From a virus (Duplodnaviria > Heunggongvirae > Uroviricota > Caudoviricetes), in the IMG/VR virus record IMGVR_UViG_2529292985_000033: a stretch of DNA of 12,710 bases, one strand, 5' to 3'. The notes under the pieces are model-generated. The model searched no databases, was not told the origin of the DNA, and saw nothing but the letters and a program-made list of their open reading frames with translations. Position numbers and translations under genes: made by a program. Positions within the stretch are counted from its first letter, which is position 1; each line of letters starts with the position of its first letter. Positions 2,954 to 12,710 of the stretch are shown piece after piece.

Positions 2954-4810
2954 TTATGATGATGCCGGTGCATTTATCTCCAGCACCAGACTTTCTATCT
3001 CAACGCCATACGCTGCATTTTTGGTAATATCCGTCAGCGTCAGCGCATTCAGCCCCAGTGTCAGACTGTCTTTTATGACCTGGAATGCCGGGCCAGCCAC
3101 ACCATTCAGTTTCGGAGTAACCGTGGCACTGCCGGCGGTGAACACCAGCTCCAGCGTCTGCCAGTCGTTACTGTAATTCCCGAACTCGCCCAACTTTGTG
3201 TTTCCGGCTTTCTTGTGATGCATCAGATTCAGTTTGCCGTCTGTGGTCTGGGTGAAGAACGACATCAGGAACGGGTTACCAGTCCCGGTCATCGCCACGA
3301 CGTCAGGTAACGCTACATCGGTATACAGATAAATTCCCAGACCGAACTGGTTGTTGGTCAGTGCGCCTGACAGTCGAAACTTACAGCTCAGTCTGCCACC
3401 CCGTGTCAGCAGGGAGACTGCGTCATCCACCGGATGCATCAGGGACCAGGTTTTATTGCTCTGCTTGGTAACCTTAAACACACCATCTTCCAGCGCAACA
3501 CTGCCGCCGGTGATGGTCCAGCCCTGCGCAGCAGCCTCTCCGGCTGTCGGCAGCAGGGAGACTGTACGAACGGATGTGTCACCATCAGACGGCCCCGATG
3601 GCGTGTCGCCGCCGGGCGAGGGTTTAATCTCCGGTGCGGTACCGCTGATGAAGGCGCTGGTTCGACCAACTGCGTTCAGAATAGCGGTTGCCAGGCGATC
3701 CGAAATAATGCCCCTGCGCGCCCATGAACTGAAATGTGTCGGACGATTTGACGATACCCAATTACCATTACTACGGGATTGCGCGCCGTAATAACCTGCA
3801 TCAGCAATATCCGGGTCTTCTGCCGGTAAGTTGGTGGGCGTGTTGTTACCGTTACCGTCGGTCATGAACGGCACAAAGAAAACGTTGTCGCTCTCCCTGT
3901 TTTTGTACGCGCCGTAGACGGAGTCATACTGTGTGCCGTATGTGTTTTTCCAGTAATACGTCGTGTCGCCACAAATCCACGGTACAACTGCAGCACTGCC
4001 GCCATGGCACTGCGCGTTAAATCCGGAAAGGTCAGTACGGAACTGCTTCAGCATGGCCGTGAACAGGTCCGGTTGCTGTGCGTAGGTGGCAGCGCTCATG
4101 TCAAATTCGCCCTGCATCCAGCACACCGCCAGCAACACATTTTTCGGGTTCTTCTGTAATGCCGCTTTGGTGCGTGCGATCAGGTCCTGATATAACGGTT
4201 TACCCACACCCCAGCGTGCCGAATCCTGGCTGGCCCCCGTGTCCGCACTGAATGTCCCCTCCGCGCCCTGGGTGAATGCCGAACCACCACGACAGCATGG
4301 TACCAGCAGGATCCCCGCGTTATTCGGGATATACGGAAGCAGTTTTTTGGCAATATGTAAGCCCTGGCCGACACAGCCGTACTGCCCTTTGCTCAGGTCT
4401 GCCTTCGGATGATTCAGTGCGCTCATATCCTGAACATCATGCAGGCAGTGGTCTGCCGGAATGATGTCGTTAAATGCGCATGCTTTACCACCGGGAGTCA
4501 CTGTGTTGCGACGGGCCAGTTGCTTAATACGTGGGTGGGGCGCATCGTAAGAATCCGGAAGCGGAAGCCCTTCACCGTAAGCCATGGCATTGGATTGCCC
4601 GGCCAGTACGATGACGTAGTACCACTCCGGCTCAGTTGCACCACTGACGACCACATCACCTTCTGCTGCAATCGCCTGCATCAGGGTATAAGGGGTTATG
4701 GCCACCGGACTACCAAACGGCTGCCAGCCCTCTTTCAGTTTATGTGTCAGCTTTTCCGCAAGATCTGACGGCGACGCCGCCCTGACAACATCATAGTGTT
4801 TAAATGCCAT
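2954..4810 (-). CDS. nanS-p: Prophage-type sialate O-acetylesterase (NanS-p-like; N-terminal DUF1737-like region plus SASA/SGNH-type esterase domain)
   Basis: Contains the GQSN block (…VLAGQSNAMAYGEG…) typical of sialate O-acetylesterases, at a length (~620 aa) and position matching the nanS-p genes of Stx-type phages. Start placed at MAFKHYDVV (4810), which has a GGTGGAAAG SD-like sequence; the track start at 4825 has none. Confidence 0.75.
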   Translation of the reverse strand: MAFKHYDVVRAASPSDLAEKLTHKLKEGWQPFGSPVAITPYTLMQAIAAEGDVVVSGATEPEWYYVIVLAGQSNAMAYGEGLPLPDSYDAPHPRIKQLARRNTVTPGGKACAFNDIIPADHCLHDVQDMSALNHPKADLSKGQYGCVGQGLHIAKKLLPYIPNNAGILLVPCCRGGSAFTQGAEGTFSADTGASQDSARWGVGKPLYQDLIARTKAALQKNPKNVLLAVCWMQGEFDMSAATYAQQPDLFTAMLKQFRTDLSGFNAQCHGGSAAVVPWICGDTTYYWKNTYGTQYDSVYGAYKNRESDNVFFVPFMTDGNGNNTPTNLPAEDPDIADAGYYGAQSRSNGNWVSSNRPTHFSSWARRGIISDRLATAILNAVGRTSAFISGTAPEIKPSPGGDTPSGPSDGDTSVRTVSLLPTAGEAAAQGWTITGGSVALEDGVFKVTKQSNKTWSLMHPVDDAVSLLTRGGRLSCKFRLSGALTNNQFGLGIYLYTDVALPDVVAMTGTGNPFLMSFFTQTTDGKLNLMHHKKAGNTKLGEFGNYSNDWQTLELVFTAGSATVTPKLNGVAGPAFQVIKDSLTLGLNALTLTDITKNAAYGVEIESLVLEINAPASS

Positions 4811-5069
4811 GGTTCTTTCCACCATCTGAAAAATGATTCTTTAAAATACCTGACATGTAATACAGAAAAAAACAAAACCATACCTTAAATAAAAACCTCA
4901 TCATCAAGCAGATATGCATGGATAAACTACAAGACGAGATATAAACCACCATGCATTTAAATAAACAATAAACAACATCAGAAAAATAATTCTGCTCTAT
5001 GGTTTACAATCAAAAATATCATTTATACTTTTCAGAACATCACCAGCAAGACATAAACAAGGAAACTAA

Positions 5070-5405
5070 ATGAAGTGGATTGTGATTGATACAGTTATCC
5101 AGCCATCATGCGGAATATCTTTTTCAGTCATATGGAGTAAAATAAAATTAATAATCTGGTATCAATCGGATGCTTTCTTACCTCCTGAAAGTATATTTAC
5201 ACTGACTCACACAGGCATCATGCTCAATAACAAAGTGCTACCTGTAACCATTTACAACGTAGTGCCATTCAATAAAACATTCTGGAATTTAATCAAAAAC
5301 AGCCAGGAATGCCCTACAAATACAGATAACGTATTGAATGAATGCTTTAATAACCGTTGCACTCTGCAAATATGTCCTTATGGACTAAAACAACAAAGTC
5401 CATAA
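5070..5405 (+). CDS. Hypothetical 111-aa protein, AT-rich candidate moron ORF, opposite in orientation to all phage genes
   Basis: ATG at 5070 is preceded by AAGGA (5059-5063) with 6-nt spacing. It is the only ORF of 60 aa or more with an ATG start in the 4826-5830 segment. I recognise no similarity; the I/N/K-rich composition could be an artefact of AT-rich DNA. Confidence 0.35.
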
Positions 5406-5425
5406 GGAGTTTACTCACATCTGAC

Positions 5426-5461
5426 AAAATCAATATAAACAGCCCCTCCGGAGAGGGGCTG
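5426..5461 (-). terminator. Intrinsic terminator-like hairpin (9-bp stem CAGCCCCTC/GAGGGGCTG, 4-nt loop) followed on the minus strand by a U-rich tract
   Basis: Perfect inverted repeat at 5440-5448 / 5453-5461. The plus strand has an A-rich tract at 5426-5439, so the minus-strand RNA reads hairpin then UUUAUAUUGAUUUU. Confidence 0.5.
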
Positions 5462-5830
5462 GAGAGTGGCGCTATGTGCCATTGCATGGTGCCGGGTGCC
5501 TCCCGGTAAATTCAGCCTGTCTACTGAATTTGCATGTTCTCTGGATCATACACTTTGCCAGATGCCCCGCCGCTGAGGGGGATTCACCATGCGATGTAAT
5601 TTTTAACAAATTCTCCGGCAGCCAGACAATCATCAAGCTGTGGAATTGTGAGGTATTTAAAAATTTCAACGGGTAACTGATACCCTGCTAATCGCCTGAT
5701 GCTTTCTTTTTCAGCAACGGGAAAGCAACAACCACCACACCCGCCACCAAAACATCATCAGACAGCACCGACATTATCCGGCTGCTGAAGTCCACCATCA
5801 CCACCAGAAACAACAGGAGTGCAACCACAG

Positions 5831-5873
5831 CTGCTTAGAAGGCAATTGCTCTGTCCGGCTGAGCTAACAACGC
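5831..5873 (-). pseudogene. argO: tRNA-Arg(UCU)-like 5' fragment (acceptor, D-arm and anticodon arm only; T-arm and 3' acceptor strand missing)
   Basis: Minus-strand sequence GCGTTGTTAGCTCAGCCGGACAGAGCAATTGCCTTCTAAGCAGC folds as the 5' half of a tRNA with anticodon loop CTTCTAA. Sequence below 5831 has no T-loop or complementary acceptor strand. Gene symbol is by synteny with Stx-phage ileZ-argN-argO and is uncertain. Confidence 0.5.
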
Positions 5874-5887
5874 AGAATACCGATAAA

Positions 5888-5964
5888 TGGACCGCCATCG
5901 AGAACTCGAACCCCGCGCAACCAGCTTCGAAGGCTGGCGCTCTATCCCGATGAGCTAATGGCGG
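5888..5964 (-). tRNA. argN: tRNA-Arg, anticodon UCG (77 nt)
   Basis: Manual cloverleaf: acceptor CCGCCAT/ATGGCGG, D-stem GCTC/GAGC, anticodon stem CCAGC/GCTGG, loop CTTCGAA, T-loop TTCGAGT, 3' TCCA. Symbol by synteny only. Confidence 0.75.
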
Positions 5965-5971
5965 TATGTGA

Positions 5972-6047
5972 TGGTGGCCCTTGCTGGATTTGAACCAGCG
6001 ACCTGGCGATTATGAGTCGCTCGCTCTCACCACTGAGCTAAAGGGCC
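5972..6047 (-). tRNA. ileZ: tRNA-Ile2 (anticodon CAU, lysidine type; automatic tools may call it tRNA-Met), 76 nt
   Basis: Minus strand GGCCCTTTAGCTCAGTGGTGAGAGCGAGCGACTCATAATCGCCAGGTCGCTGGTTCAAATCCAGCAAGGGCCACCA closely resembles E. coli ileX-type tRNA, with anticodon loop CTCATAA and CCA end. Confidence 0.85.
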
Positions 6048-6087: not shown

Positions 6088-7146
6088 TCATCCGTTCTGG
6101 CTGACTAAATCCTGTACTTCCCGAACCGTCTGCTCAAAACGTCCGGTCTCCAGCTCAACGCCAATCGCACGACGCCCGAGCGCCAGTGCCGCTTTTACCG
6201 TTGAACCTGAGTCCATAAAAAAATCTGCAACCAGGTCACCCGGACGACTGCTTGCGCTGATTATCTGCTGCAGCATTTCTGCCGGTTTTTCGCACGGATG
6301 TTTCCCGGGATAGAACTGCACCGGTTTATGTGTCCACACATCCGTGTACGGCACCTGCGCCGTCACACCAAAATACCGCCGCAGATGCTTATATTCACTC
6401 TGCAGCTCCACATACTGCCGATTCAGTGACGTATACGTATCCACCAGCTGGTGGTGGGGCTTTTCCAGTTCACCGCGCTGATGTTTCTCTTCTGCCACCC
6501 GGGCAAACAGCGACTGTAATTTCAGATAATCGCTTTCGTTCGGTAGCTGCCACTGACTGGCACTGAACCAGTGCGACACCATGTTTTTCTTTCCTGTGGC
6601 ATCTGCAATCTGTTTTGCCGTTATCCCCAGGGCCGCGCGCGCATCACGAAAGTAAGAAATCAGCGGGGCCATCACATGCTGTTTCAGTGCACTGCCCTTC
6701 GCCGCATACCCGGCATCTTTCGGACGATACGGCCCCTGATAATGTTCCGCGAACAGAATGCGCTCTGTGGCGGGGAAATACGCCCGCAGGCTTTCCTTGT
6801 TGCATCCGTTCCAGCGTCCGGACGGCTTCGCCCAGATAATATGGTTCAGCACACTGAAGCGTTCACGCATCATGATTTCGATATCAGATGCCAGGCGATG
6901 ACCACAGAACAGGTAAAGACTTCCGGCAGGTTTCAGCACCCGCCAGAACTGCGCCAGACACTGGTCCAGCCACTTCAGGTAATCATCGTCGCCCTTCCAC
7001 TGGTTATCCCAGCCCTCAGGCTTCACTTTAAAGTACGGCGGGTCCGTGACTATCAGGTCAACAGAATTTTCGGGTAACGACCAGATAAATTCCAGGCAGT
7101 CGGCGTTGATTAACTCACAACTGGATATTTTTACAGTATTAAGCAT
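6088..7146 (-). CDS. DNA methyltransferase, beta-class amino-MTase (N6-adenine or N4-cytosine), no adjacent restriction gene
   Basis: DPPY catalytic motif near the N-terminus (…DLIVTDPPYF…) and an AdoMet-binding motif near the C-terminus (…DLVADFFMDSGST…). This circular-permutation order is typical of beta-class MTases. Position between Q and the tRNA array matches Stx-type phages. Confidence 0.85.
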   Translation of the reverse strand: MLNTVKISSCELINADCLEFIWSLPENSVDLIVTDPPYFKVKPEGWDNQWKGDDDYLKWLDQCLAQFWRVLKPAGSLYLFCGHRLASDIEIMMRERFSVLNHIIWAKPSGRWNGCNKESLRAYFPATERILFAEHYQGPYRPKDAGYAAKGSALKQHVMAPLISYFRDARAALGITAKQIADATGKKNMVSHWFSASQWQLPNESDYLKLQSLFARVAEEKHQRGELEKPHHQLVDTYTSLNRQYVELQSEYKHLRRYFGVTAQVPYTDVWTHKPVQFYPGKHPCEKPAEMLQQIISASSRPGDLVADFFMDSGSTVKAALALGRRAIGVELETGRFEQTVREVQDLVSQNG

Positions 7147-7240
7147 GGATCATTAAGCCTGTCTCTGATAGGCTCATTCTGCTTTTGCGCAAAGCAGTGG
7201 GCCTGAGGTTTGCTTGTGAACCCAACGCATGAGCAGATGG

Positions 7241-7267
7241 CTGGTGGGTGCCCCTAACACCCACCAG
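7241..7267. other. Perfect 10-bp inverted repeat CTGGTGGGTG-N7-CACCCACCAG (stable hairpin, no U-tract)
   Basis: Read directly from the sequence; lies in the 150-bp leader between the small HTH ORF and the MTase start. Confidence 0.6.
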
Positions 7268-7283
7268 CCGCCCATTTACCACA

Positions 7284-7310
7284 AATAAAAAAGCCTTCAC
7301 TGCGGAAGGC
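7284..7310 (-). terminator. Intrinsic terminator-like hairpin (GCCTTC-N6-GAAGGC) followed on the minus strand by UUUUUUAUUU
   Basis: Stem at 7293-7298 / 7305-7310 with a plus-strand A-run at 7284-7292. It overlaps the stop codon of the 7297-7494 ORF. Confidence 0.55.
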
Positions 7311-7494
7311 GTCTGTAACAACCGAACTGATAGTCTGCCAGACCCGCCATAACCAGCTGGGTCAGTATTAACTGGCAGCGTTCGCGTGAAAGGTAAGTAT
7401 TCTGCGCAATCTCCCCGACTGTCGCCGGGTCGTTAACGCTTAATTCATTAAACACCACTCTGGCGGTTTCTGTCATATCCTGCTGTTTTAGCAT
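7297..7494 (-). CDS. Hypothetical 65-aa protein with HTH-like segment (…ATVGEIAQNTYLSRERCQLILTQLV…), first ORF of the late transcript
   Basis: Start chosen at MLKQQDM (ATG 7492-7494), preceded by AAGGGAAAAAGAC. The longer track ORF (to 7581) would run through the tR'-like terminator. The motif assignment is by eye only. Confidence 0.4.
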   Translation of the reverse strand: MLKQQDMTETARVVFNELSVNDPATVGEIAQNTYLSRERCQLILTQLVMAGLADYQFGCYRRLPQ

Positions 7495-7614
7495 GTCTTT
7501 TTCCCTTTTCCGGTTAACGTGACACACCAATAACTCTTGTCGAAAAAGCCAGCAAGCTGAAAGACAGGTATTCACCGCCACCAGCGCGTTTACTGTACTG
7601 ACGCGATTTCAGTC

Positions 7615-7638
7615 ATAAAAAACCCGCCAGGCGGCGGG
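7615..7638 (-). terminator. tR'-like intrinsic terminator just downstream of the late promoter
   Basis: Minus-strand RNA CCCGCC-GCCU-GGCGGG followed by UUUUUU (plus-strand A-run 7615-7622), about 45-65 nt downstream of the predicted pR' start. This matches the lambdoid pR'-tR' short-transcript arrangement. Confidence 0.65.
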
Positions 7639-7687
7639 GTGTAAAAAATCTTCTAACGTCAGGCATAAAACGCCCATCGTTAGAGCA

Positions 7688-7715
7688 AATTTACCACAGA
7701 TTCGGGAAAAATCAA
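7688..7715 (-). promoter_or_regulatory. pR'-like late promoter (-35 TTGATT, 16-nt spacer, -10 TAAATT) immediately downstream of the Q-like gene
   Basis: Minus strand reads TTGATTtttcccgaatctgtggTAAATT; lambda pR' has the same TAAATT -10. Located 6 bp after the stop of the 273-aa ORF. Confidence 0.5.
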
Positions 7716-7720
7716 CAACA

Positions 7721-8542
7721 CTATCGCGTTACCCTCTTTAACTGCCGCTCCGCCCATGCCTCTTCAATGTCAAACCGAACCACCAACGTATCGTAAAAGC
7801 GTTTCACTGATTTTTTCCACGTATCAAGCGTGATAGCACTCGTCACTTTGCATATGGCATTAAATGCCTCCGTTGATGGTAGTCTTTCACAGCCACGACC
7901 ACCACAACGCTGGCAGTCTCTGATAACAGGCATACCACGTTTTACCGACTCTTCACGATGAATGGCGACACCACGCCCACGGCAATCCTTACAGGCGGTG
8001 GAAACCTCACCCTTTCCGCCACACTCCGGACAGGCAACTTTTACCACCTCCCTGACTTTTTTCCATTCTTCCCAGTAAGACGGATACACACCTTTCGTAC
8101 ACTTTGCCCATACCGGCGGCTTACCATCCGGATACTGGACCTTGTTTGTAAAAACTACGCTTTCAATAAATTTTTCCCCATAGCAACAAGGGCACTGCTT
8201 TTTACTCGCTGCGCTGCGGGCATAATCCTCAAAAGCGTACGAAGCCATAATGCGCATCACTACCGGTTTTATTTCTGCCGGAAGTTTTCTCAACGCCGCC
8301 ACACGATCGCACCGACTGAGTGCATAATCTGCCAGTAATTCTGTTGCCCGCGCCCTGTCATTCATACTGATGCCCATTTTCCCCAGGAACGCAGAAAACC
8401 CCATCTCAGCCCGATTCTGTGTCATGCCCTGCGCGGCCATCACATCAGTGATACTCAGCGCATCTTTTGACGTTGAGGCCGATACATCGGTCAGGCCAGG
8501 GGATTTTGGGGAGTAGTATTTCGGTAAATCTTCCAGTTTCAT
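7721..8542 (-). CDS. Probable late-gene antiterminator Q-like protein (273 aa) with four CxxC pairs (zinc-ribbon-like)
   Basis: Sits immediately upstream of the pR'/tR' pair and downstream of rusA, the canonical Q position. Contains CPCCYGEK, CPECGGKGE, CKDCRGRG and CQRCGGRGCE. Its start overlaps the rusA stop (ATGA). Assignment is by synteny, not sequence recognition. Confidence 0.55.
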   Translation of the reverse strand: MKLEDLPKYYSPKSPGLTDVSASTSKDALSITDVMAAQGMTQNRAEMGFSAFLGKMGISMNDRARATELLADYALSRCDRVAALRKLPAEIKPVVMRIMASYAFEDYARSAASKKQCPCCYGEKFIESVVFTNKVQYPDGKPPVWAKCTKGVYPSYWEEWKKVREVVKVACPECGGKGEVSTACKDCRGRGVAIHREESVKRGMPVIRDCQRCGGRGCERLPSTEAFNAICKVTSAITLDTWKKSVKRFYDTLVVRFDIEEAWAERQLKRVTR

Positions 8543-10686: not shown

Positions 10687-10717
10687 AAAATAAAAACAAA
10701 AACCCGCCGAAGCGGGT
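10687..10717 (-). terminator. Intrinsic terminator at the 3' end of the hok mRNA (stem ACCCGC/GCGGGT, loop CGAA, then U-rich tract)
   Basis: Hairpin at 10702-10717 with a plus-strand A-rich run at 10687-10701. Confidence 0.55.
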
Positions 10718-10722
10718 TAAGT

Positions 10723-10736
10723 GCGGGTGCGTTGAG
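10723..10736 (-). promoter_or_regulatory. hok mRNA 3' fbi-like element, complementary to the predicted mRNA 5' end (11102-11114)
   Basis: Plus strand GCGGGTGCGTTGAG (10723-10736) matches the reverse complement of CTCAAGCACCCGC (11102-11114) except for one bulged base, giving a ~13-bp long-range 5'/3' pairing as in the hok fbi/tac architecture. Confidence 0.5.
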
Positions 10737-10786
10737 AATGCCTGCCACATCAGAGGTGGCGAGGGATTTCTCCCTCGCCGGGTCTC

Positions 10787-10942
10787 TTACTCCTCAGGTT
10801 CGTAAGCTGTGAAGACAGCGACCTCCGTCTGGCCGGTTCGGATTCGTACCTCGCAGAGGTCTTTCCTCGTTACCAGTGCCGTCACAATGACGGTTAAACA
10901 GATGACGATCAGGGCGATTAGCATCGCCTTTTGCTGCTTCAT
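10787..10942 (-). CDS. hokD: HokD (RelF) type I toxin, 51 aa
   Basis: MKQQKAMLIALIVICLTVIVTALVTRKDLCEVRIRTGQTEVAVFTAYEPEE matches HokD as I recall it. The track ORF extends 19 codons upstream in frame to 10999. Confidence 0.9.
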   Translation of the reverse strand: MKQQKAMLIALIVICLTVIVTALVTRKDLCEVRIRTGQTEVAVFTAYEPEE

Positions 10943-11118
10943 AGCCTGCTTCTCCTTGCCTTTCGGCACGTAAGAGGCTAACCTACGTGTGTAGAGCATA
11001 GATATGGCCTCAGATTAATGTTAAGCGTCTTGCCGGACGCGTAATGTTAACTGGGGCTTTTCTCTATCTGCCTTTTGGTGTTCATGCCTGAGACAGATAG
11101 CCTCAAGCACCCGCTGCA

Positions 11119-11467: not shown

Positions 11468-11481
11468 CTTTGGATTTGCCC

Positions 11482-12387
11482 CTATATTTCCAGACATCTG
11501 TTATCACTTAACCCATTACAAGCCCGCTGCCGCAGATATTCCCGTGGCGAGCGATAACCCAGCGCACTATGCGGATGCCATTCGTTATAATGCTCGAACG
11601 CCTCTGCAAGGTTCTTTGCTGCCGTTAACCCGTCTGGTTTGGGCATGATACTGATGTAGTCACGCTTTATCGTTTTCACGAAGCTCTCTGCTATTCCGTT
11701 ACTCTCCGGACTCCGCACCGCCGTGTTCTTCGGTTCAAGTCCCAACATCCGGGCGAACTGGCGTGTTTCATTAGCCCGGTAGCATGAACCATTATCCGTC
11801 AGCCACTCCACTGGAGACGACGGAAGATCGTTGCCGAAGCGGCGTTCCACCGCTCCCAGCATGACGTCCTGTACTGTTTCACTGTTGAAGCCGCCGGTAG
11901 TCACCGCCCAGTGCAGTGCCTCACGATCACAGCAGTCCAGCGCGAACGTGACACGCAGTCTCTCTCCGTTATCACAGCAGAACTCGAACCCGTCAGAGCA
12001 CCATCGCTGATTGCTTTCTTTCACGGCCACTCTGCCTGTATGTGCCCGTTTCGATGGTGGTACAGCAGGTTTTCGCTCAAGCAACAGCGCATTCTGGCGC
12101 ATGATCCGGTAAACACGTTTGGCATTGATCGCAGGCATACCATCAAGTTCTGCCTGTCTGCGAAGCAGCGCCCATACCCGACGATAACCATACGTGGGCA
12201 GCTCTCCGATAACATGGTGTATACGGAGAAGCACATCCGTATCATCAGTGTGACGACTGCGGCGGCCATCCATCCAGTCATCGGTTCGTCTGAGAATGAC
12301 GTGCAACTGCGCACGCGACACCCGGAGACAACGGCTGACTAAGCTTACTCCCCATCCCCGGGCAATAAGGGCGCGTGCGCTATCCAC
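11482..12387 (-). CDS. insD: IS2 transposase OrfB (InsD), copy 2 (E to G substitution relative to copy 1)
   Basis: 301-aa ORF identical to copy 1 except PKPDELT to PKPDGLT. Confidence 0.9.
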
Positions 12388-12710
12388 TTTTTTGCCCGTC
12401 CATATTCAACGGCTTCTTTGAGGAGTTCATTTTCCATCGTTTTCTTGCCGAGCAGGCGCTGGAGTTCTTTAATCTGCTTCATGGCGGCAGCAAGTTCAGA
12501 GGCAGGAACAACCTGTTCTCCGGCGGCCACAGCAGTAAGACTTCCTTCCTGGTATTGCTTACGCCAGAGAAATAACTGGCTGGCTGCTACACCATGTTGC
12601 CGGGCAACGAGGGAGACCGTCATCCCCGGTTCAAAGCTCTGCTGAACAATTGCGATCTTTTCCTGTGTGGTACGCCGTCTGCGTTTCTCCGGCCCTAAGA
12701 CATCAATCAT
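12345..12710 (-). CDS. insC: IS2 OrfA (InsC), copy 2; start codon is the last codon of the window
   Basis: 121-aa ORF identical to copy 1 InsC. Confidence 0.9.

Follow-up and report, generated by a model that had tools for sequence, protein, structure and literature searches.

A predicted cassette of a winged-helix protein, a structured RNA spacer, and an M.EcoGII-type adenine methyltransferase at the head of a lambda-type late operon

We analyzed a 12,710-nucleotide (nt) stretch of caudoviral DNA (IMG/VR record IMGVR_UViG_2529292985_000033), referred to below as the window, in which an initial annotation made from the sequence alone had drawn attention to a 65-amino-acid (aa) open reading frame (ORF) near the start of a putative late operon. 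By comparison with related loci, this ORF is the first part of a conserved, mobile, three-part cassette comprised of a leader motif with a gene for a predicted winged-helix protein, a structured RNA spacer, and a gene for a predicted non-specific adenine methyltransferase. Judged from gene order, the position of the cassette is between the late promoter-terminator pair (pR'-tR') and the lysis or Shiga toxin (stx) genes of lambdoid phages across Enterobacterales. We propose, with confidence that is about evenly balanced, that the cassette is a toxic methyltransferase gated at several layers and that the winged-helix protein is its dedicated controller, acting through nucleic-acid signals. The whole arrangement lies on the minus strand of the window, with its elements in order from position 7720 down to 7237.

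The evidence for the cassette begins with gene linkage. Some 130 loci, ranging from Escherichia to Proteus and Plesiomonas, had the ORF directly 5' of a gene for a predicted non-specific adenine methyltransferase of the M.EcoGII family. A set of 34 loci, taken from one-genome-per-species contigs and covering 12 or more genera, included Escherichia albertii, Salmonella, Kluyvera, Citrobacter, Klebsiella, Buttiauxella, Enterobacter, Proteus, Providencia, Mangrovibacter, Mixta, and Plesiomonas; in 32 of these loci the ORF (43-95% identical) was followed 142-153 nt on by the same PF01555 methyltransferase (59-98% identical). One of the remaining two (L020) had no methyltransferase gene, and the fetched sequence of the other (L023) stopped just inside it. 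Genes upstream of the pair differed between loci, and Q types varied. When viral contigs were sought through the methyltransferase alone, 89 of 92 carried both the ORF and the spacer, two ended at the contig edge, and one was rearranged; about half of the 92 had a different Q type. This set adds little independent evidence, because it returned close E. coli-type relatives only. Distant homologs of the ORF recovered by an index-free profile search again adjoined a PF01555 methyltransferase gene. In SfV and mEp460, both of them viable phages, Q is followed in turn by a terminator, the ORF, the methyltransferase gene, and a holin gene, and in Shiga toxin (Stx) phages tRNA and stx genes come after the methyltransferase. 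Variants of an ST131 prophage retain the ORF without the methyltransferase; these are deletions, with the joint after the 5' arm of the P1 hairpin of the spacer described below. The cassette region was matched in 2488 of 5426 complete E. coli genomes.

The ORF itself (7494-7297, minus strand; ATG at 7494 and TGA at 7299-7297) had been described as the first protein of the late transcript and as one that was not recognized. The gene is real and stands behind tR', but it is not free-standing, being the upstream partner of an M.EcoGII-type methyltransferase gene; and the protein has been catalogued before, as phrog_331, as L23 of phage phiP27, and as orf47 of SfV. A word-indexed search returned 333 homologs at E <= 1e-3, from Escherichia, Salmonella, Klebsiella, Citrobacter, Pantoea, and others. 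The index-free profile search, run against 1.84 billion representatives, yielded 84 clusters only, 83 of which were small proteins of 18-114 aa (approximately 60-100 aa when full length), the exception being a weak match in a 1264-aa protein. Among eleven 63-aa orthologs, differences were concentrated at codon position 3 (1389, versus 362 at position 1 and 326 at position 2). On this coding signature, the ORF is a genuine protein under purifying selection, conserved as a frame in related phages, and the phiP27, SfV, and Stx-phage loci carry it. Upstream in-frame extensions given in some annotations showed no conservation as protein.

The helix-turn-helix-like segment noticed in the initial annotation proved to belong to a predicted winged-helix fold of three helices and a beta-hairpin wing (predicted local distance difference test score, 92), which could be superposed on known winged-helix domains. 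Its best structural matches were DNA-binding regulators; Foldseek and profile matches also included, weakly (E ~1e-3 to 0.05), the N-terminal winged-helix dimerization domains of S-adenosylmethionine (SAM)-dependent methyltransferases. The match to the phrog_331 profile, which has no assigned function, was strong (E = 5.9e-37, and E = 2.9e-21 for the Proteus homolog), and the protein is catalogued at NCBI as "TrmB family transcriptional regulator." No Pfam model exceeded its threshold for the ORF (TrmB, PF01978, came closest at 18.5 bits versus a cutoff of 25.6, and MarR_2 and HTH_24 were also below), NCBIfam gave zero matches, and the PADLOC match was insignificant. Within the family, the N terminus MLKQxDMT and helix 3, C(Q/E)(L/F)(I/L)LTQ(L/F/M), are near-invariant, and helix 2 and the wing are variable. 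The recognition helix is conserved together with the leader motif in all lineages.

Between the ORF and the methyltransferase lies a structured RNA spacer of about 150 nt (7280-7144, minus), forming the 5' untranslated region of the methyltransferase gene and recognized by alignment, RNAalifold, and covariation. The initial annotation had reported here a perfect 10-bp hairpin without a U-tract at 7241-7267. The hairpin is present, with 12 perfect pairs (GGCTGGTGGGTG/CACCCACCAGCC, 7269-7258/7250-7239, here P1b-c), but it is not isolated, being the apical part of the larger covarying RNA. Its fold energy of -31.8 kcal/mol (z = -5.2) was matched by 0 of 200 shuffles. Together with the basal P1a (7275-7270/7234-7229) and a conserved 4-nt bulge, P1b-c makes up P1, a long, near-perfect stem of 18-19 pairs. 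The long-range helix P2 (7222-7212/7158-7147) pairs AGGUCACAAGC with GCUUACUGAUCU, occluding the 12 nt directly ahead of the methyltransferase AUG, a start codon that lacks a Shine-Dalgarno sequence; P4 (7203-7198/7176-7171) and P5 (7197-7191/7185-7179) are nested in P2. An alternative helix, P3 (7237-7229/7217-7209; alignment columns 56-64/78-86), excludes both P1a and P2. The P1 hairpin is also a recurrent rearrangement joint: the ST131 deletion falls after its 5' arm (L132, 2860-2875), and in one viral contig homology begins inside its 3' arm (L091, 1395-1410).

Helices were assigned from RNAalifold and manual inspection, and spacer length and sequence were conserved over the 33 aligned sequences. 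In the MAFFT alignment, 94% of cells were standard pairs versus 26-42% with slid partners, 9 pairs had both partners changed, and none of 500 shuffles did as well. A covariance-model alignment of 40 sequences, which leans towards the model, gave 94.9% paired, 14 pairs changed on both sides, and again 0 of 500 shuffles, with slid controls reaching up to 44%. Three of the pairs in P2 had changes on both sides, and the arms of P1 have been rewritten in a compensatory manner in Proteus, Providencia, Plesiomonas, and locus L139. The abundance of G-U pairs and the weak reverse-strand score of the spacer model (20.7 bits versus 130 bits) argue for an RNA read from the sense strand. Minimum-energy folds of 8 divergent sequences contained P1 in all 8 and placed the initiation region within the P2 helix in 6; over all 8, forced opening of this region cost 2.7-9.7 kcal/mol. 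In P3, the pair of columns 58/84 occurs as four standard types (C-G, A-U, U-A, and U-G), covariation links column 81 to column 61 as well as to column 143, and the Plesiomonas P3 is a perfect 9-bp helix. The mutual exclusion of P1a and P2 with P3 suggests an RNA switch, as far as covariation can tell. The spacer also contains highly conserved unpaired stretches. No Rfam 15 family matched it at gathering score, nor at permissive thresholds; the sole Rfam match of the spacer and leader was P26 (24.2 bits versus 36), on the wrong strand and driven by the palindromic stem. A tiny upstream ORF coupled to the methyltransferase AUG was also weighed and was discarded, since inspection of the alignment found no start codon between in-frame stops.

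The third part of the cassette (7146-6088, minus) encodes a predicted 352-aa beta-class N6-adenine methyltransferase of the M.EcoGII/M.EcoGI family (PF01555, E = 3.6e-42). It has the N-terminal DPPY motif and is 95% identical to the enzyme of phage 1720a-02, which is very similar to M.EcoGII (PMC5778455). M.EcoGII is a non-specific adenine methyltransferase that is silent in the lysogen and harmful if constitutively expressed (PMC5778455; PMC12707154). At codon 312 (6211-6213, minus), the window copy reads FFMDSGS where all relatives read FFMGSGS, a G312D change in the C-terminal, SAM-binding FxGxG motif at a residue that is nearly invariant in the methyltransferase family. The window copy may therefore be inactive, which would fit a decaying prophage.

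Upstream of the cassette, the minus strand of the window has the predicted features of the head of a lambda-type late operon, a conclusion supported by a Q gene, a pR' with its pause element, a terminated leader, and tR' in succession. The Q antiterminator gene (8542-7721) encodes a 273-aa protein of the lambda-Q family (PF03589, E = 3.9e-51). Its match to the solved lambda Q (PDB 7UBM_Q, E = 5e-38) falls in two blocks, residues 1-113 and 182-273, and thus it is read as a lambda-family Q interrupted near its center by an insertion of about 70 aa; identity to lambda Q was 29% by tblastn. The insertion covers residues ~114-181; its C-terminal part and the region just beyond gave a weak, below-threshold match to a DnaJ-type CXXCXGXG zinc motif (residues 171-217, E = 9.3e-6).

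The Q stop codon (TAG, 7723-7721) lies 6 nt ahead of the -35 hexamer of a predicted pR'-like promoter (7715-7688), which consists of TTGATT at 7715-7710, a 16-nt spacer, and an extended -10 element, TGgTAAATT, at 7696-7688. In the lambda record, pR' reads TTGACT-N17-TAAATT-TGACTC-AACGATGGG. The -10 region of the window, GGTAAATTTG, is identical to that of lambda pR', as is the pause element AACGATGGG (7681-7673), which begins six bases past the -10 element and corresponds to the -10-like element of the lambda initial transcribed region. In lambda, this -10-like element brings about the sigma-70-dependent pause needed for Q loading. The composite promoter and pause pattern occurred once in the window versus 0 times in 200 shuffles; the same layout lies behind the Q homologs of SfV, Buttiauxella, Stx2_EH1910, lambda, and other loci, and the pause element is also matched in SfV, L017, and L029. 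A generic sigma-70 scan found no promoter in 6900-8000 and missed the pR'-like site because just 8 of its 12 positions fit the consensus.

Transcription probably starts at about 7682-7681. The predicted terminated leader RNA would be about 65 nt long (7682-7617, its ends being inferred), with a 5' hairpin, an AU-rich linker, and a terminator; it has a fold energy of -23.3 kcal/mol (z = -3.06) and no Rfam match, even at permissive thresholds. The tR'-like intrinsic terminator (7638-7617) has the form CCCGCC-GCCU-GGCGGG followed by U6, with 6 G-C pairs and the loop GCCU. Terminator-like sites numbered 4 in the region versus 1.1 expected, a comparable terminator precedes the cassette in nearly all related loci, and the homology blocks of other phages start exactly at the tR' hairpin. 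The reading of the pR'/tR' pair after a Q-like gene as a lambdoid antitermination arrangement, put forward in the initial annotation, is supported by the Q homology, the promoter and pause match to lambda pR', and the intrinsic terminator that comes next.

Two further signals accompany the ORF. The leader motif TTGCTG-N12-AGAGTTA (7555-7531, minus) lies 5' of the small ORF. Of 139 fetched loci, 121 had a single exact match to it, oriented like the ORF, and even the most distant lineages were among them. A constant 17 nt separates its TTGCTG from a TA(Y) without the -7 T of a sigma-70 -10 element, and the generic scan detected no sigma-70 promoter between tR' and the ORF, leaving an autonomous "moron" promoter unsupported. 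A sigma-54 promoter reading of TTGCTG was rejected upon inspection, as no GG element is conserved 5 nt upstream. The 122-nt ORF leader had no significant single-sequence fold (z = +0.41) and no Rfam match at permissive thresholds. At the other end of the gene is a second terminator, t2 (7310-7285), formed by GCCUUC-CGCAGU-GAAGGC at 7310-7293 and U6 at 7292-7287; the ORF stop codon spans its last loop base and 3' arm. A terminator holding the stop codon had been noted before and is indeed present in the window, but a clear U-tract is found in some lineages only (pronounced in Escherichia and Enterobacter, intermediate in Salmonella and its relatives, and weaker in the rest), and the hairpin is absent in Proteus and Providencia.

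The model we favor would work as follows. A promiscuous methyltransferase that is toxic if made constitutively would be kept silent in the lysogen, and a limited amount would be released in late lytic growth only, protecting progeny DNA from restriction. At the level of transcription, RNA polymerase modified by Q would have to read through tR' and, in lineages that have it, t2; translation of the methyltransferase would be limited by P2 over the start region and could be opened if P3 replaced P1a and P2. The winged-helix protein would act as dedicated controller on the leader motif, the spacer RNA, or both. We favor a controller role because the recognition helix and the leader motif are conserved in every lineage and the predicted fold is that of DNA-binding regulators. 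The earlier suggestion of a regulator or anti-defense factor was right in spirit, and is most plausibly seen at the level of the cassette, as an anti-restriction module with its own regulator. We also entertain, as possible rather than probable, the broader proposal that the spacer is an undescribed class of cis-regulatory RNA switch (P1a and P2 versus P3) that gates the methyltransferase and is flipped by the winged-helix protein, by P1 processing, or by a ligand, and that together with the small protein it constitutes an independently evolved lambdoid counterpart of com-mom, with a fossil in lambda.

Several observations weigh against this model. The M.EcoGII identity of the enzyme was reached through its 95% match to the 1720a-02 enzyme and the published statement on the latter, and not by direct alignment. 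Catalysis does not require the small protein, M.EcoGII being active by itself both in vitro and in vivo (PMC5778455). The winged-helix family is near-neutral to acidic, with a net charge of -5 to +3, an uncommon range for proteins that bind nucleic acid. When the ~80-95 nt 5' of the ORF start were aligned, no consensus RNA fold emerged for the leader motif, and the motif is not a conserved palindrome, giving no sign of a dimeric operator. In the alignments, P3 was paired in 76% overall, and the covariation comes from few clades, mainly Enterobacteriaceae versus Morganellaceae, so independent events are few. One lineage (L135-137) retains Q, tR', the leader motif, the ORF, and a methyltransferase (60% identical) and has, in place of the structured RNA, a 73-nt spacer (3195-3268 of these loci) with a terminator-like hairpin and a normal Shine-Dalgarno sequence; the role of the winged-helix protein therefore cannot depend on spacer RNA everywhere. 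The gate model as a whole is a prediction from sequence, fold, and covariation. The 5' arm of the L135-137 hairpin resembles the P1 arm GCTGGTGG.

The main rival to a controller is a protein that binds the methyltransferase itself, as an accessory or specificity subunit that alters its target range or as an inhibitor that restrains it, with the RNA spacer serving independently. We consider this somewhat improbable, but it accounts well for the persistence of the gene pair even in the lineage without the RNA element and for the near-neutral to acidic character of the family. Beta-class methyltransferases are thought to act as dimers (PMC7544214), the weak matches to winged-helix dimerization domains of SAM-dependent methyltransferases point the same way, and there is a precedent in M.ECPA8_3172P, which copurifies with PNB-2 and is redirected to 16S rRNA (bioRxiv 10.1101/2023.09.20.558713). 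However, PNB-2 is unrelated (phrog_1680, at another locus), M.EcoGII alone is fully active and non-specific, and a subunit role would not explain why the leader motif is conserved along with the ORF. A different emphasis would make the spacer mainly a processing or stability element, with P1, as a target of RNase III or a hairpin that protects the 3' end, separating the ORF mRNA from the methyltransferase mRNA. The length and near-perfection of P1, with its conserved bulge, suit such a role, and the lambda late leader, in which RNase III sites were reportedly mapped by Daniels and coworkers in 1988, has a P1-like hairpin without any methyltransferase. Processing is compatible with both the gate model and the subunit reading; in the gate model, cutting within P1 would release the 3' strand of P1a to form P3. 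As the principal function of the spacer we think it unlikely, because P2, P4, P5, and the pairing of the start region are as conserved and covarying as P1, and a pure processing site needs none of them.

Two simpler or more specialized explanations fare worse. An ordinary late leader, headed by a stand-alone DNA-binding regulator or anti-defense moron with an incidental hairpin and no tie to the methyltransferase, would suit the moron-like layout of terminator, gene, and terminator, the fold of DNA-binding regulators, and the persistence of the ORF in the ST131 prophages whose methyltransferase is deleted. Yet methyltransferase linkage is near-universal over 43-100% identity and with differing Q types, the variants that lack the enzyme are deletions with their joint inside P1, no sigma-70 promoter was detected between tR' and the ORF, and the hairpin belongs to a covarying multi-helix RNA; we regard this explanation as very unlikely. 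The spacer could also be a metabolite riboswitch controlling the methyltransferase, sensing for instance SAM or S-adenosylhomocysteine: the enzyme uses SAM, and the spacer has mutually exclusive covarying helices and highly conserved unpaired stretches. Against this idea stand the lack of similarity to Rfam riboswitches, the absence of an evident ligand pocket, the lineage that manages without the element, and the fact that Q already accounts for late timing, and we hold it to be highly improbable.

The cassette and its setting have parallels in several known systems. The upstream part resembles the lambda pR'-qut-6S RNA-tR' unit and StxS, an Hfq-binding RNA made from the pR' of Stx phages (PMC7547250), in having a lambda-family Q, the identical -10 region and AACGATGGG, a short predicted leader ending at an intrinsic terminator, and late genes on the 3' side. 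The predicted leader RNA is about 65 nt long here, shorter than the 194-nt RNA of lambda and the 258-nt StxS. The promoter differs from lambda pR' in its 16-nt spacer and extended -10 element, and the stretch from -35 to -10, which in lambda contains the Q-binding element, is different; the window Q, unlike lambda Q, carries the insertion of about 70 aa.

The closest parallel in organization is com-mom of phage Mu, along with the Com proteins paired with non-specific adenine methyltransferases in Mu-like prophages (hin1523, nma1821, and hia5) (PMC3299994; PMC6483171; PMC12707154). In each, a small gene for a regulator, here a putative one, stands directly 5' of a toxic, late, broad-specificity adenine-modifying enzyme. 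The translation start of the enzyme lies inside an RNA helix (here P2, as computed), and protection from restriction would be a shared purpose. Mu Com, a zinc finger, is related neither in sequence nor in fold to the predicted winged helix of the ORF, and mom is driven by the C-dependent Pmom, whereas the present cassette is lambdoid and lies behind Q and pR'. The ORF was rejected as a Com-type zinc finger on account of its fold and its cysteines, of which there are two only (C40 and C59), with no CxxC pairs. Restriction-modification C proteins are likewise encoded by small helix-turn-helix genes 5' of, and cotranscribed with, a toxic partner, with a conserved motif ahead of their own gene. 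They are Xre-type dimers acting on palindromic C-boxes, and the ORF was rejected as one of them, its fold being a winged helix and its upstream motif having no conserved palindrome. By analogy, the winged-helix protein would be a functional counterpart of Mu Com or C proteins, homologous to neither.

The methyltransferase itself has its nearest known relatives in M.EcoGII and M.EcoGI from a prophage of E. coli O104:H4, with which it shares the beta class, the DPPY motif, and silence in lysogens, and to which it is tied by 95% identity to the 1720a-02 enzyme, described as a very close relative; the window copy differs in carrying G312D in FxGxG. The M.EcoGII literature cited here treats the enzyme alone, and the upstream partner ORF, the structured leader, and the pR'-tR' position are not described there. 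M.ECPA8_3172P with PNB-2, from Stx phage PA8, is similar in pairing a non-specific phage adenine methyltransferase with a small, coexpressed protein that modifies its behavior (bioRxiv 10.1101/2023.09.20.558713). It differs in being a 208-aa Dam-like methyltransferase with a 143-aa protein of phrog_1680, in the early-left region. The ORF was rejected as PNB-2 of PA8, the two having different genes, loci, and PHROG families and no significant similarity.

Lambda itself carries a probable trace of the spacer. A match to the spacer model (29.6 bits, E ~1e-6 in 1.5 kb) was found between tR' and S, at 45014-45145 of NC_001416 (1215-1346 of L003). The matched segment includes P1, its stem compensated, as well as the P3 region and the sequences GUGAAAGCGGGU, UUUUGCCCGU, and GGUCACGAACAAA, and it has no P4 or P5. 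No remnant of the small ORF was found in lambda, nor any trace of the methyltransferase with the match. From these similarities, the lambda match is probably a relic of the cassette.

The remainder of the window is consistent in layout with a prophage fragment bracketed by two direct copies of an IS3-family insertion sequence (HTH_Tnp_1 and rve ORFs, 2 mismatches) at 1568-2852 and 11471-12710, with a fragment of an aldehyde dehydrogenase gene (1-1047, plus) outside the left copy. On the 3' side of the methyltransferase are tRNA-Met (6047-5972), tRNA-Arg (5964-5888), a small RNA of the STnc100 family (5622-5431, 130 bits), iraM (5070-5405, plus), and a gene for a NanS-p-like esterase (4825-2954); there are no stx or lysis genes between the methyltransferase and the insertion sequence (2954-6047). 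A hok/sok toxin-antitoxin locus is present on the minus strand (sok at 10937-11112, 117 bits; Hok ORF at 10787-10999), beside a subthreshold isrK-like match (10697-10778, 26.6 bits).

M.EcoGII-type enzymes are widely used tools and are common in prophages, but how a toxic, sequence-independent methyltransferase is silenced and then deployed is not addressed in the literature cited here. Known beforehand were phrog_331, as a catalogued family, and, as a class, regulated phage modules for toxic DNA modification. The present analysis adds a testable architecture, in which read-through would depend on Q, a covarying leader would hide the start codon, and a winged-helix protein would be the dedicated partner. 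It further provides a genomic context for the abundant function-unknown family phrog_331, and a candidate RNA motif without an Rfam match. Because in Stx phages the cassette is carried on the same late transcript, just 5' of the tRNA and stx genes, it may also affect toxin expression through its terminators and structures.

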